Part shown: piece by piece, positions 55,250-56,363 of the stretch
Numbering within the stretch: position 1 is the first letter of the stretch
Layout: every line of letters starts with the position of its first letter
Virus record (IMG/VR): IMGVR_UViG_2909739949_000002
Location: 18,529 to 82,528 of that record
Reading direction: 5' to 3' (one strand)
Length of the DNA stretch: 64,000 bases
From: a virus
Lineage: Duplodnaviria > Heunggongvirae > Uroviricota > Caudoviricetes
Notes under the pieces: model-generated
Database searches by the model: none
Told to the model about the DNA's origin: nothing
The model's input: the letters and a program-made list of their open reading frames with translations, nothing else
Program-made: the position numbers and the translations under genes

Positions 55250-55368
55250 GGTACTGCTCCCTCTTCTGTCGAAGAATGAGATAGAAGCCATAGATAGTTA
55301 CTTCGGTTAAATCAAGGTTCAACTCCTTAAACTCTCATTGAGAGTATGTACTATCTAGTCCACCGTCC
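55250..55368 (+). ncRNA. Y-RNA-like structured RNA unit a (with tRNA-like module)
   Basis: 5' GGTACTGCT ... TAGATAGT-TTACTTC ... T-arm AAGG-TTCAACT-CCTT, closed acceptor AAACTCTC-ATT-GAGAGTAT ... ACTATCTA ... CCACCGTCC. Confidence 0.5.
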
Positions 55369-55396
55369 TTATATAAATAAGCATTTAAATATAGAT

Positions 55397-55465
55397 GGGT
55401 GCTGCTAATTAAGAGTTACTTCTTTTAGGGTAAAGACACAGTAAGACTCTAATGCTCACTGCCCC
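55397..55465 (+). ncRNA. Y-RNA-like structured RNA unit b (short form)
   Basis: GGGTGCTGCT-AATTAAGAG-TTACTTC ... ACTCTAAT ... CACTGCCCC; internal helix ATTA(A)GAGT/ACTCTAAT. Confidence 0.5.
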
Positions 55466-55483
55466 ATTTTTAATCTTCTCAAT

Positions 55484-55672
55484 ATGGAATGGAATAAGGA
55501 GATAGATTTACTCTTTGATAAATGGATAGAGATATCAATAGAGAAAGGTGAATGGTTTTACTTTTCAATAAAAGAAATCTATGATGTAGATCCTAAGTAT
55601 CAAGGAGTATTAGGTAAAACTGATTCAAGACCTGTATTTGAATTAGGATTTAGATTACCTTTTAAGATCTAA
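55484..55672 (+). CDS. questionable small ORF (62 aa) inside the RNA array
   Basis: no SD; lies between units b and c. Confidence 0.25.
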   Translation: MEWNKEIDLLFDKWIEISIEKGEWFYFSIKEIYDVDPKYQGVLGKTDSRPVFELGFRLPFKI

Positions 55673-55682
55673 ATAAATTAGA

Positions 55683-55809
55683 GGTGCTGCTCTAGATAGT
55701 TACTTCAGTAAAATCGTTCGGTTGTTAGTTCAAGTCTAACTATTACCCAAGGGTAATATAGCTCAATGGTAGAGCAAATGAAAAGATAAAACTATCTAAC
55801 CCACTGCCC
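55683..55809 (+). ncRNA. Y-RNA-like structured RNA unit c (with tRNA-like module 55724-55776)
   Basis: GGTGCTGCT-CTAGATAG-TTACTTC; T-arm GTTAG-TTCAAGT-CTAAC; acceptor TATTACCC-AA-GGGTAATA; D-arm GCTC-AATGGTA-GAGC; helix TAGATAGTT/AACTATCTA; 3' CCACTGCCC. Confidence 0.6.
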
Positions 55810-55820
55810 TCTTAGGAAAT

Positions 55821-55891
55821 GGGTACTGCTAGTTAAGGTTACTTCTATTAAAGCCAACAAACAGAGACAATACCTTAACGCTTACCGTCCC
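55821..55891 (+). ncRNA. Y-RNA-like structured RNA unit d (short form)
   Basis: GGGTACTGCT-AGTTAAGG-TTACTTC ... ACCTTAAC ... TTACCGTCCC; helix GTTAAGGT/ACCTTAAC. Confidence 0.5.
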
Positions 55892-55898
55892 ATTTAAT

Positions 55899-55970
55899 CC
55901 AGTCTTAGTTCATCGGTAGAATAGGCCTTTTGGGAAGGTCGGGTAACTGGTTCAATTCCAGTAGACTGGA
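55899..55970 (+). tRNA. tRNA-Pro (anticodon UGG)
   Basis: acceptor CCAGTCT/AGACTGG, D-stem GTTC/GAAT, anticodon stem GGCCT/AGGTC loop TTTGGGA, T-arm ACTGG-TTCAATT-CCAGT, discriminator A. Confidence 0.75.
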
Positions 55971-56046
55971 TTTAACTAACTAGTACTAAAGTGATGTAAT
56001 CATGTAGATTACTTCTCTTTAGCTTATAAGGGTTAGTTAGAATAGA

Positions 56047-56198
56047 AGTGCTGATAAGTAGAGATACATCAATAAATTAGATGTCCGTAGGTTCAAATCC
56101 TACTATTATTAGGTAACTAGTAATATGGCTGAGTGGCTAAAAGCATCTATTCTTAAAGAGTAGAGACATCACATACCATTTCTCTACTGACTACTGCC
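56047..56198 (+). ncRNA. Y-RNA-like structured RNA unit e (with tRNA-like module 56087-56144); preceded by degenerate partial unit at ~55990
   Basis: AGTGCTGAT-AAGTAGAGA-TACATC; T-arm GTAGG-TTCAAAT-CCTAC; acceptor TATTATT-A-GGTAACT-AGTAATA; D-arm GCT-GAGTGGCTAAA-AGC; helix AGTAGAGA/TCTCTACT; 3' CTACTGCC. Confidence 0.5.
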
Positions 56199-56212
56199 TT
56201 CTAGATATGAAA

Positions 56213-56287
56213 GGTACTGAATAGATAGAGATACTTCTACCGCAAATGGAAACATGGTAAACAAACCCTCTCTATCATCTACTGTCC
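56213..56287 (+). ncRNA. Y-RNA-like structured RNA unit f (short form)
   Basis: GGTACTGAA-TAGATAGAG-ATACTTC ... CTCTCTATC ... CTACTGTCC; helix GATAGAGA/TCTCTATC. Confidence 0.5.
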
Positions 56288-56295
56288 TTTTAGTA

Positions 56296-56363
56296 GGTGC
56301 TGACTAATCTAGTTACTTCATACAGCTAACATAATATGTACCATACTAGATTACATACTGCCC
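56296..56363 (+). ncRNA. Y-RNA-like structured RNA unit g (short form)
   Basis: GGTGCTGAC-TAATCTAG-TTACTTC ... CTAGATTA ... CATACTGCCC; perfect 8-bp helix TAATCTAG/CTAGATTA. Confidence 0.55.

Follow-up and report, generated by a model that had tools for sequence, protein, structure and literature searches.

Y RNAs, the non-coding partners of Ro60, are thought to be interchangeable adaptors that decide what this protein does, and most of the bacteria and phages studied so far carry only one to four of them. The DNA analyzed here, a window of 64,000 nucleotides, contains a stretch which had been read from its letters as an array of at least seven Y-RNA-like units lying directly upstream of a Ro60 gene, and this raises the question of whether such an array can indeed be a set of partners for a single protein or is better explained as something else. 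Our analysis indicates that the region is very probably a cluster of seven Y RNA genes, which has a tRNA-Pro gene set among them and lies a short distance upstream of the Ro60 gene that the element itself encodes.

The window belongs to contig JACJQF010000002.1 (359 kb) in the assembly of a cyanobacterial culture, Calothrix sp. FACHB-1219. Its gene content is phage-like, in agreement with the original prediction, but no phage structural genes were identified within the 64 kb; that the element is a phage is plausible. The element also encodes a Thg1-like tRNA 5'-end repair enzyme. Among about 40 window ORFs scanned, no PNPase or RNA ligase gene was found, and a tblastn search with the 1144-aa ORF yielded no match in phage genomes. 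The gene downstream of the array encodes a Ro60/Rsr orthologue, as had been proposed, for in addition to its TROVE domain match (Table 1) its AlphaFold2 model (pLDDT 76) presents the Ro60 fold, with the top 12 PDB matches retrieved by Foldseek all being Ro60 over some 550 aligned columns. The protein carries the DxSxS motif of the vWA MIDAS at residue 353 and, at residues 138-185, an inserted basic repeat of 48 aa that is specific to its lineage; a blastn search of the locus returned only weak TROVE matches.

A pattern scan for the blocks [AG]GT[AG]CTG, TAC[AT]TC and AC[CT]G[CT]C[CT] in strict 5'-to-3' order identified exactly seven occurrences on the + strand between positions 55250 and 56363, bearing out the existence of a seven-unit array with a shared architecture. 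The block-to-block lengths of units a to g are 119, 67, 127, 69, 153, 75 and 68 nt. The blocks occur in the order originally described but are looser than they had been written, with AGTGCTGAT and ATACATC in unit e, ATACTTC in unit f and ACCGTCC in units a and d. All seven units, which occupy 55248-56365 and lie on the Ro60 strand, follow one plan, in which a terminal stem, interrupted by a bulged U and a U·Y mismatch, leads through an internal loop to an 8-bp upper stem of free sequence, followed by UAC(U/A)UC and a variable apical module. Counting two flanking nucleotides on each side, the terminal (lower) stem comprises seven pairs, with the bulged U3 and the U6·Y mismatch in its 5'-GGURCUG strand. 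The conservation of the termini had been noticed from the start, but not that they also pair with each other, with four of the seven pairs covarying.

Table 1. Features of the predicted Y RNA array and of the adjoining Ro60 gene (R1 and R2, covariance models described in the text).
Feature	Positions	Strand	Description and basis
Predicted Y RNA unit a	55248..55370	+	123 nt; block order and pairing; partial R1 match, 22.5 bits
Predicted Y RNA unit b	55396..55466	+	71 nt, short type; full-length R1 match, 55.5 bits, E 5e-13
62-aa ORF	55484..55672	+	Between units b and c; ORF list and gene call in the NCBI record
Predicted Y RNA unit c	55681..55811	+	131 nt, YrlA type; R2, 66.6 bits, E 1e-14
Predicted Y RNA unit d	55820..55892	+	73 nt, short type; R1, 54 bits, E 1e-12
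tRNA-Pro(UGG) gene	55898..55971	+	Inside the array; ARAGORN; Rfam tRNA, 53.4 bits
Long hairpin x	55972..56044	+	Atypical or degenerate, without Y-type termini; contains GAUUACUUC
Predicted Y RNA unit e	56045..56201	+	157 nt; pairing; partial R2 match, 27.8 bits, E 5e-5
Predicted Y RNA unit f	56211..56289	+	79 nt, short type; R1, 44.7 bits, E 6e-10
Predicted Y RNA unit g	56294..56365	+	72 nt, short type; R1, 54.4 bits, E 1e-12
12-bp hairpin after unit g	56370..56397	+	Terminator-like, weak U tract
Ro60 gene (TROVE and vWA), 535 aa	56432..58039	+	Pfam TROVE, E 2e-11; PHROG 850, E 2e-28

Several other elements lie in or next to the array, and the tRNA-Pro gene, the 62-aa ORF and the long hairpin x had all been overlooked, as had the tRNA-like arms of units a, c and e. 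Spacers of 4-9 nt separate unit c from d, d from the tRNA gene, e from f and f from g, while unit e abuts hairpin x directly. The tRNA-Pro(UGG) gene has counterparts between a Y unit and Ro60 in two relatives (L053 and L056). The ORF, which may be part of the system, has no Pfam or PHROG match and no similarity to the small ORF inside the array of relative L112. A possible eighth unit had been suggested and does not hold, the corresponding segment being hairpin x (minimum free energy -22.3 kcal/mol, z -3.95), which lacks both terminal blocks and is matched by neither R1 nor R2. The array does end immediately upstream of Ro60, but the gap from unit g to the start codon measures 66-68 nt and not 70. 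The 66-nt spacer at 56366-56431 that holds the 12-bp hairpin folds with -20.6 kcal/mol (z -3.48); the hairpin was not called by the consensus terminator scan. A run of five U residues lies 3' of unit b, and the consensus promoter scan detected neither a promoter nor any excess of promoter-like sites.

The reading of the units as RNAs had been based on variable strands that differ between units and yet always pair with their partners, and a pairing check located every listed helix, including the one in unit b that is interrupted by a single bulged A (ATTA(A)GAGT/ACTCTAAT). The upper stem reads TAGATAGT/ACTATCTA in unit a, GTTAAGGT/ACCTTAAC in unit d, AGTAGAGA/TCTCTACT in unit e (the first terminal-stem pair of which is A-U), GATAGAGA/TCTCTATC in unit f and TAATCTAGT/ACTAGATTA in unit g. 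In a composite core alignment of the seven units, with the apical parts removed, 105 of 105 cells are Watson-Crick paired and 11 of the 15 pairs have changed on both sides, values which none of 500 column shuffles reached, and only 35-49% of the cells pair when the partners are slid by 1-3 columns as a control. Compensatory changes between paralogs, whose absence had been named as grounds for abandoning the original prediction, are thus present. With relatives added, the core alignments retain 97-98% pairing and display compensatory changes in 12 of 15 and 14 of 15 pairs, and the lower stem, fully paired within the window, is 99.5% paired in 56 distinct sequences from relatives, with six of its seven pairs covarying.

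Perfect Watson-Crick pairing would also be expected of a DNA palindrome, and the original prediction had itself raised the alternative that the conserved blocks are DNA sites such as promoters, iterons or regulator sites, the inverted repeats then being palindromic operators. The helix sequences, however, vary freely while their pairing is kept, which a shared DNA-binding protein would not tolerate, and their arms are separated by 25-110 nt. Given that all pairs are Watson-Crick within the window, the strand is not fixed there by pairing alone, but in the alignment of relatives 52 of 56 sequences present G·U in place of G-C at one pair of the lower stem, as fits an RNA made from the + strand. 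The lack of any excess of promoter-like sites, the tRNA-like arms of three units, the full-length match of unit c to a structure model and the strand bias described below likewise speak against DNA sites, a reading that we regard as next to impossible.

Related Ro60 loci, which a single-protein search of viral contigs had failed to find, were recovered by an alignment-based search and analyzed with two covariance models. R1, a core model for which this window and two relatives supplied the training sequences, rests on edited sequences, namely length-equalised composite cores, because MAFFT alignments of natural short units or of cores of unequal length mis-registered the 3' blocks, and it is unable to span the long units a, c and e; R2 was built from the long units of relatives only, excluding those of the window. 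Covariance models replaced two regex and pairing scanners that produced about 8-10 false matches per window strand in this AT-rich DNA. Exact-block pattern matches in viral contigs (48 loci) exhibited upper-helix complementarity in no case, which marks them as chance matches, and they were reused as a negative control. R1 found 80 matches in 116 other Ro60 loci, every one of them on the Ro60 strand, and none elsewhere in the 64-kb window or in 438 kb of unrelated viral DNA serving as a negative control. A profile of the 5' half placed 285 of its 289 matches on the Ro60 strand. Of its 181 matches in loci with complete flanks, 165 fall within 1 kb of the Ro60 gene and none inside it; a corresponding profile of the 3' half lacked power. 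About 100 Ro60 loci, with proteins that share only about 40-50% identity, have this architecture in common, and the (U)UACUUC block is nearly invariant among 59 aligned units, four of them from this window. Short Y-like RNAs were detected with the core model in about 100 phage or metagenome-assembled Ro60 loci, and in crAss001 the model matches an unannotated gap after the TROVE gene. Together with the Ro60 fold of the downstream protein and the end-to-end alignment of R2 to unit c, the matches of R1 on the Ro60 strand uphold the reading of the array as Y-RNA-like.

The location of the array, on the strand of Ro60 and immediately before the gene, could also suggest that the units are cis-acting structures of the Ro60 mRNA leader (attenuators or stability elements) and not separate RNAs, and the weak U tract of the hairpin before the gene makes read-through possible. 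Nevertheless, of 65 related loci with full flanks, 39 have their units solely downstream of Ro60, the array here encloses a tRNA gene and an ORF, and seven different copies would be unexpected in a leader. We consider this explanation extremely improbable.

The apical parts of the units span 29-116 nt and are tRNA-like in a, c and e, whereas units b, d, f and g carry A-rich loops of 23-31 nt beyond UACUUC (46% A and 39% pyrimidine). The upper stem is directly followed by AUAC in units e and f and by UUAC in the other five. In unit c, the terminal and upper stems lead in the 5'-to-3' direction to UUAC and a V region, after which come a T arm (GUUAG-UUCAAGU-CUAAC), a closed acceptor-like stem of 7 bp, the dinucleotide UA and finally a D arm (GCUC-AAUGGUA-GAGC); R2 aligns to this unit over positions 1-130 of 130, with the ends exactly as predicted. 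The same V, T, acceptor-like and D arms characterize the long units of relatives, where 25 of 35 pairs are compensatory. In unit a, an insert of 34 nt with a hairpin occupies the 5' side of the internal loop, and the apical module joins a T-arm-like hairpin (AAGG-UUCAACU-CCUU) to a 6-bp hairpin, with no D arm. The apical domain of unit e consists of a T arm, a closed acceptor-like stem of 9 bp, a D arm of class II type and an additional hairpin. When the sequence is permuted, ARAGORN calls it as tRNA-Leu(taa), and the unit lends itself to being drawn as an entire permuted tRNA-Leu(UAA), anticodon loop included. Two folds are conceivable for it, one in which GAUGUC and GACAUC form the junction of a variable arm and another in which ACAUC and GAUGU make a local hairpin.

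The T-arm or D-arm sequences in units a, c and e, the presence of a genuine tRNA-Pro within the array and the tRNA and tmRNA genes that surround Ro60 in relatives would all be in keeping with a decaying tRNA cluster, the units being tRNA pseudogenes or rearranged fragments without functional link to Ro60. Against this, the four units that lack any tRNA-like element carry the same covarying stems, the architecture has persisted over Ro60 loci with widely diverged proteins, and the succession of T arm, closed acceptor stem and D arm is that of YrlA and not of a broken tRNA (PMC4201824). Decay of a tRNA cluster is hence very improbable as the origin of the array.

A relationship with YrlA is also suggested by Rfam, the YrlA model of which does match unit c, but at 35.7 bits, below the gathering score of 69; no other unit matched it at E<=10, and relatives L050 and L051 are likewise hit below threshold (46.3 and 32.5 bits). 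The short units tested are covered by none of the Rfam families. Where the published 5' motif GNCGAAN0-1G would be expected, all seven units have G(R)CUG(M)N instead. The sole strict match to the motif, at 55268, lies within the additional insert of unit a and is, as we estimate, no more than chance would give, while among 66 units of relatives the strict motif occurs in one and a relaxed form, GNYGWA, in 32. The bulged-U terminal stem is the likely counterpart of the bulged helix that Ro60 recognizes in other Y RNAs.

It may still be asked whether the RNAs, if real, act mainly without Ro60, for instance as tRNA-shaped decoys or sponges for host tRNA-cleaving nucleases or tRNA-modifying enzymes, their linkage to the gene reflecting co-regulation only. 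The tRNA-Leu(UAA) form in which unit e can be drawn, the Thg1-like enzyme of the element and the fact that YrlA is a substrate of tRNA enzymes (PMC4201824) lend themselves to such a role. However, all seven units, including the four with no tRNA-like part, share the same lineage-specific terminal helix, which argues for one shared protein partner, and the linkage and strand bias to Ro60 are tight across the family. A function mainly independent of Ro60 therefore appears improbable, and association with Ro60 is the reading pursued here.

On this basis, it seems reasonable to postulate that the units would be transcribed from the + strand as polycistronic precursors, possibly as two transcripts, one comprising a-b and ending at the U5 run after b, and the other comprising c-g and ending at the hairpin after g. 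Host tRNA-processing and other RNases would then excise the units, and Ro60 would bind and protect the terminal stem of each. The different apical modules could serve to connect Ro60 with various host factors, PNPase or tRNA-binding enzymes for example, or could alternatively gate its RNA-binding cavity, and the outcome would be a redirection of structured-RNA turnover or repair during infection or stress. A far more speculative proposal, which we deem rather unlikely, is that the seven adaptor RNAs, with their different effector ends, form an expanded toolkit in which unit e would mimic a complete circularly permuted tRNA-Leu(UAA), its anticodon loop intact, and would serve together with the Thg1-like enzyme as a decoy or as a platform for repair, countering host defences that cleave tRNAs. 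The short A-rich units would in this proposal represent a widespread phage class, crAss-like phages included, for which Rfam has no model and which is missing from crAss001, the one phage record examined.

The novelty first implied for the locus, a multi-copy array in a phage, has to be narrowed, given that phage Y RNAs have been published (PMC4201824, PMC12135203) and that related phage loci, mostly with two to four units and some with five or six, reach six detectable unit starts. What is new is the copy number of seven, against at most six detectable unit starts in the phage loci surveyed, together with, as predicted from sequence, the variant Ro60-site motif, the short A-rich-loop units absent from Rfam and a unit (e) whose sequence allows a complete permuted tRNA-Leu to be drawn. 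Here a single Ro60 gene is accompanied by seven paralogues that have a predicted Ro60-binding end in common and putative effector ends of at least four kinds, a natural test set for separating the Ro60-binding part from the recruiting parts. Annotation of the short Y-like RNAs would also help to read the tRNA, tmRNA and Ro60 regions of large phages.

Among known systems, YrlA (Rfam RF02553; Salmonella Typhimurium, Mycobacterium smegmatis and mycobacteriophages) is likewise encoded beside Ro60 and on the same strand; Y RNAs within 4 kb of Ro60 on its strand have been reported in 254 bacteria and 22 phages, the latter with YrlA RNAs beside the gene (PMC4201824). The paired termini of YrlA form a stem that holds the Ro60 site, an arrangement repeated here, and the YUAY with which its V region begins has its equivalent in the UUAC after the upper stem. 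The YrlA order of V region, T arm, closed acceptor-like stem, UA and D arm, a circularly permuted tRNA, is found in full in unit c, which from its sequence also possesses the A15:U48-type combination, but in only this one of the seven; it is partial in e, reduced to a T arm in a and absent from b, d, f and g, and the 5' motif here is GGURCUG and not GNCGAAN0-1G. Through its extra hairpin, unit e differs from YrlA in resembling a whole class II tRNA joined through the variable arm, whereas YrlA has its junction at the anticodon stem (10.1101/312249). Short hairpin Y RNAs (YrlB of S. Typhimurium and M. smegmatis, Yrn2 of D. radiodurans) offer a second, non-tRNA-like type that accompanies a tRNA-like RNA and Ro60 and shares its Ro60-binding end with the YrlA partner, as the units here share a predicted one. 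Their small pyrimidine-rich loop on a long hairpin is, however, not seen in units b, d, f and g, which bear large A-rich loops after UACUUC.

In D. radiodurans, Yrn2, a tRNA-Asp and Yrn1 follow one another head to tail upstream of rsr and are produced as a single precursor (PMC4201824), an organization close to the one described here, where there are seven Y RNAs instead of two, the tRNA-Pro sits in mid-array and co-transcription is presumed. Thermus phage phiLo encodes two Y-like RNAs upstream of a Ro60 that binds them and forms a complex with host PNPase (PMC12135203). This phiRo60 (PDB 9KOP and 9L5Y) is the closest solved structure to the Ro60 of the window, although the two are only 17-19% identical in structural alignment, and both have their Y-like RNAs immediately upstream; those of phiLo (Yrl1 and Yrl2) are two with a CGAA motif, against seven without it here. 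Metazoan Y RNAs, finally, are separate Pol III genes that lack a tRNA-like domain and end in a U tract to which La binds, but they share with the units of this array a terminal stem, the G-rich 5' strand of which contains a bulged pyrimidine and reads GGUCCGA in metazoans and GGURCUG here, and a variable loop module, which in metazoans binds other proteins.

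A search for ordered sequence blocks revealed seven sets of [AG]GT[AG]CTG, TAC[AT]TC and AC[CT]G[CT]C[CT], always in this order, on the + strand (55250-56363), upstream of the Ro60 gene. These block sets define units a to g, the coordinates of which include two paired nucleotides flanking each terminal block. The original prediction had described a tandem array of structured units with co-varying internal helices and conserved termini. All the internal helices it listed are present in the sequence, as are the conserved terminal blocks, but it overlooked the base pairing between the 5' and 3' terminal blocks of each unit. 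The terminal stem thus formed comprises, from outer to inner, the pairs (-2,+2), (-1,+1), G1-C7', G2-C6', R4-Y5', C5-G4' and G7-C2', with U3 bulged between G2-C6' and R4-Y5' and a U6·Y3' mismatch between C5-G4' and G7-C2'. Four units (b, c, e and g) carry G-C at R4-Y5' and the other three (a, d and f) A-U; pair 1 of the terminal stem is A-U in unit e, and the two flanking pairs vary freely between units. The internal loop above this stem has 3-4 nt in its 5' strand and 5 nt in its 3' strand (in unit a the 5' strand has 34 nt and contains a hairpin of its own) and is followed by an 8-bp upper stem, the end of which abuts TAC(T/A)TC exactly; the apical sequence beyond this block spans 29-116 nt.

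Features of the Y RNA/Ro60 locus and of the surrounding window (window positions)
Feature	Position	Strand	Basis or remark
LAGLIDADG endonuclease	3752-4357		
DUF2828	15578-16252	+	weak sub-threshold Pfam match, 25.9 bits against a cut-off of 29
T5orf172/MUG113 (GIY-YIG-like) protein	26184-26675		
Thg1-like protein (tRNA-His guanylyltransferase family)	36407-37186	+	PF04446, E 2e-23, full profile coverage
TnpB/IS605-type gene	44434-45681	-	
Class II ribonucleotide reductase (B12-dependent) adjoining cobalamin adenosyltransferase	47372-50370	+	
NblA (phycobilisome degradation) gene	54986-55204	+	directly upstream of the array
9-bp hairpin	55205-55228		3' of the NblA gene
Unit a	55248-55370	+	block order and pairing
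Unit b	55396-55466	+	block order and pairing
62-aa ORF between units b and c	55484-55672	+	ORF list; no family match
Unit c	55681-55811	+	block order and pairing
Unit d	55820-55892	+	block order and pairing
tRNA-Pro(UGG)	55898-55971	+	ARAGORN and Rfam
Hairpin x, between tRNA-Pro and unit e	55972-56044	+	-22.3 kcal/mol, z -3.95
Unit e	56045-56201	+	block order and pairing
Unit f	56211-56289	+	block order and pairing
Unit g	56294-56365	+	block order and pairing
Ro60 gene	56432-58039	+	TROVE domain; PHROG 850 match
Spore-photoproduct-lyase-like radical SAM protein	60817-61755	+	3 kb downstream of Ro60

In a composite core alignment of the seven window units with the apical parts cut out, 105 of 105 cells are paired (counting structure pairs) and 11 of the 15 pairs show changes on both sides, which, together with the seven ordered block sets, confirms the predicted array of structured units. 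The observed pairing values were reached by none of 500 shuffles, and only 35-49% of cells pair when the structures are slid by 1-3 columns. Since the window pairs are all Watson-Crick, pairing alone does not give the strand within the window. The units are placed on the + strand because it is the strand that carries Ro60, the tRNA-Pro gene and the tRNA-like arms, and because the innermost lower-stem pair is G·U in place of G-C in 52 of 56 sequences from relatives.

Searched with the Rfam YrlA model (RF02553), as the original prediction had proposed, unit c gave a hit, but its score of 35.7 bits falls below the gathering score of 69. Two related Ro60 loci, L050 and L051, yielded one sub-threshold YrlA match each; they carry, respectively, three and two units upstream of Ro60, with the architecture and UUACUUC of the window units. 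A composite core alignment of 12 sequences from the window and these two relatives has 97.8% of its cells paired and 12/15 compensatory pairs. The core covariance model built from it (R1) recovers four window units end to end (b, d, f and g; 44-55 bits), with no other match on either strand of the 64 kb. Across 116 Ro60 loci from viral and genome collections R1 gave 80 matches at E<0.1, all of them on the Ro60 strand, and zero matches in 438 kb of unrelated viral DNA. The best 59 matches, in an alignment that is fitted to R1 and hence biased towards the structure, are 97% paired and have compensatory changes in 14 of 15 pairs. A second model (R2) was derived from eleven long units of the relatives only, the RNAalifold consensus of which comprises a lower stem, an upper stem and V, T, acceptor-like and D arms, with compensatory changes in 25 of 35 pairs. 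Unit c matches R2 over all 130 positions, exactly at 55681-55811 (66.6 bits, E 1e-14), and this is the strongest independent test of unit c as a YrlA-type RNA; the match of unit e is partial (27.8 bits).

The apical modules are heterogeneous. Unit c has the complete YrlA layout, with UUCAAGU as T loop and a closed 7-bp acceptor-like stem followed by UA and a GG-containing D loop; the unit has A at position 15 and U just before the T stem. Unit a contains a T-arm-like hairpin and one further hairpin and lacks a D arm; unit e presents a T arm, an acceptor-like stem that is closed and 9 bp long, a D arm of class II type (GGCUGAGUGGCUAAAAGC) and an additional hairpin. The remaining four units (b, d, f and g) are without tRNA-like elements and have A-rich loops of 23-31 nt. 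Under a hand-chosen permutation, in which the acceptor loop was cut and GACAUC/GAUGUC closed with a tetraloop, ARAGORN reads unit e as tRNA-Leu(UAA) with a long variable arm. Drawn in this form, its Y stem joins via the variable arm, whereas the junction of YrlA is located at the anticodon stem (10.1101/312249). Unit e also harbors an internal duplication of GUAGAGA(U)ACAUCA (GUAGAGAUACAUCA at 56058-56071 and GUAGAGACAUCA at 56158-56170, +), so that GAUGUC and the upper stem's 3' strand could each pair with either of two partners; this points to alternative folds or to an insertion in the past. Given the hand-chosen permutation and the alternative fold, the permuted tRNA-Leu(UAA) is a lead and not a result. 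At three other loci, 'tRNA' calls by ARAGORN overlap detected Y units (L112 2392-2466, L161 2800-2875 and L137 1061-1129), and some phage tRNA annotations near Ro60 may be tRNA-like domains of Y RNAs.

In Calothrix sp. FACHB-1219, a 'TROVE domain-containing protein' encoded on a 359,493-bp contig shares 100% identity with the Ro60 gene product, whose closest relatives are only ~50% identical. With the AlphaFold model of this product (pLDDT 76) as query, the highest-ranking PDB matches are all Ro60 structures, the best being phage phiLo Ro60 (E 9e-16); they include Xenopus Ro (1YVP) and human Ro60, each of the three alignments covering ~550 columns. The MIDAS DxSxS motif is present. Residues 138-185 constitute a 48-aa K/R-rich repeat insertion (KKGDIRY / KKGEVRY / KKGQSIR), missing from 19 aligned relatives and modelled at pLDDT <50, that may serve as an extra RNA-binding arm. 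A TROVE protein with the Ro60 fold, the R1 and R2 models and the Ro60-strand bias of the matches jointly support the Y RNA reading.

Chen et al. described two Y RNA motifs, GNCGAAN0-1G near the 5' end and YUAY preceding the V region (PMC4201824). The YUAY position holds UUAC or AUAC in the window units, which we counted as agreement. GNCGAAN0-1G is absent at the equivalent position in all seven units, where the stretch reads G(R)CUG(M)N; relatives mostly have GGUG(A/U)A, with GGCGAAG in one L051 unit. The sole strict GNCGAAG match (55268-55274, +) lies inside the 34-nt insert of unit a, off the equivalent position, and is by estimate compatible with chance. Two pairs are lineage-specific in all seven units, C5-G4' (G-C in most relatives) and G7-C (G·U in most relatives), and their presence throughout the array suggests that all seven may be read by one cognate protein.

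Of 289 hits to a 5'-half profile, 285 fall on the Ro60 strand; there is one hit in 16 loci, two in 28, three in 32, four in 20, five in 5 and six in 2, the last being a crAss-like contig (L100) and the window itself, in which the profile misses unit a. Up to five units per locus pass the structural check, for example in L112. On these counts, the seven-unit array is the top end of a continuum and not a different kind. Its closest parallel in layout is a 185-kb phage contig (L112, 1605-2521) with five Y units upstream of Ro60, four YrlA-type and one short, and with tRNA-Met and a small ORF in the array. Among the 75 loci whose 3-kb flanks are complete, 165 of the 181 hits fall no further than 1 kb from Ro60; 22 of these loci have units solely upstream, 39 solely downstream and 4 on both sides. 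Same-strand tRNA and tmRNA genes surround many related Ro60 loci, two of which (L053 and L056) have tRNA-Pro(UGG) between Y unit and Ro60. In the Bacteroides phage crAss001 (MH675552), ~900 unannotated nt after the TROVE gene gp96 hold at least three Y-like units (L076 4500-5150, L167 2728-3634), some including fragments of a T arm or a D arm. The other ~100-kb crAss-like contigs surveyed also have Y-like units beside Ro60, several with tmRNA genes nearby. A full-text search of an incomplete collection for crAss with TROVE/Ro60 and Y RNA gave no crAss paper among the 15 results listed.

Spacers between unit coordinates are short (c-d 8 nt, d-tRNA 5 nt, e-f 9 nt, f-g 4 nt) and unit e abuts hairpin x with zero gap. 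Separate promoters for individual units are therefore unlikely, and we infer polycistronic transcription followed by processing. U5 follows unit b, and 3' of unit g lies a hairpin of 12 bp whose U tract is weak. Hairpin x includes GAUUACUUC and lacks a Y-type terminal stem; it may be a degenerate unit or an independent small RNA, or else play a role in processing. The L112 array also has its small ORF between units, and the encoded protein is dissimilar to that of the window's 62-aa ORF.

The window has a G+C content of ~33%, carries nearly all its ORFs on one strand and encodes a ParB-like protein. Its LAGLIDADG, T5orf172/MUG113 and TnpB/IS605-type genes are of mobile-element kinds. NblA genes occur in freshwater cyanophages, and the one found here would fit a cyanobacterial host. 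In its gene content the element resembles a large cyanophage or some other mobile element; no structural genes were found within the 64-kb window and no DNA match of the window to known phage. Thg1-like enzymes mediate tRNA 5'-end addition or repair, and the one whose gene precedes the Y RNA/Ro60 locus by ~19 kb could be functionally connected with the tRNA-like Y RNAs. Since bacterial Ro60 helps survival after UV, the presence of a putative UV repair gene (spore-photoproduct-lyase-like) near Ro60 is suggestive. The locus is best classified as a Y RNA array that is expanded and heterogeneous and whose Ro60-site motif is divergent; it lies in a phage-like element from a cyanobacterial culture, and for its units we infer Ro60 binding, processing and function.

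Such an arrangement has several precedents. Y RNAs beside Ro60 have been reported in 254 bacteria and 22 phages, and in D. radiodurans a single precursor contains Yrn2, tRNA-Asp and Yrn1 (PMC4201824). A jumbo-phage survey described TROVE proteins with a tRNA-like partner (PMC7824862), and the Ro60 of Thermus phage phiLo binds a pair of Y-like RNAs encoded upstream of it and forms an assembly with the PNPase of the host (PMC12135203).
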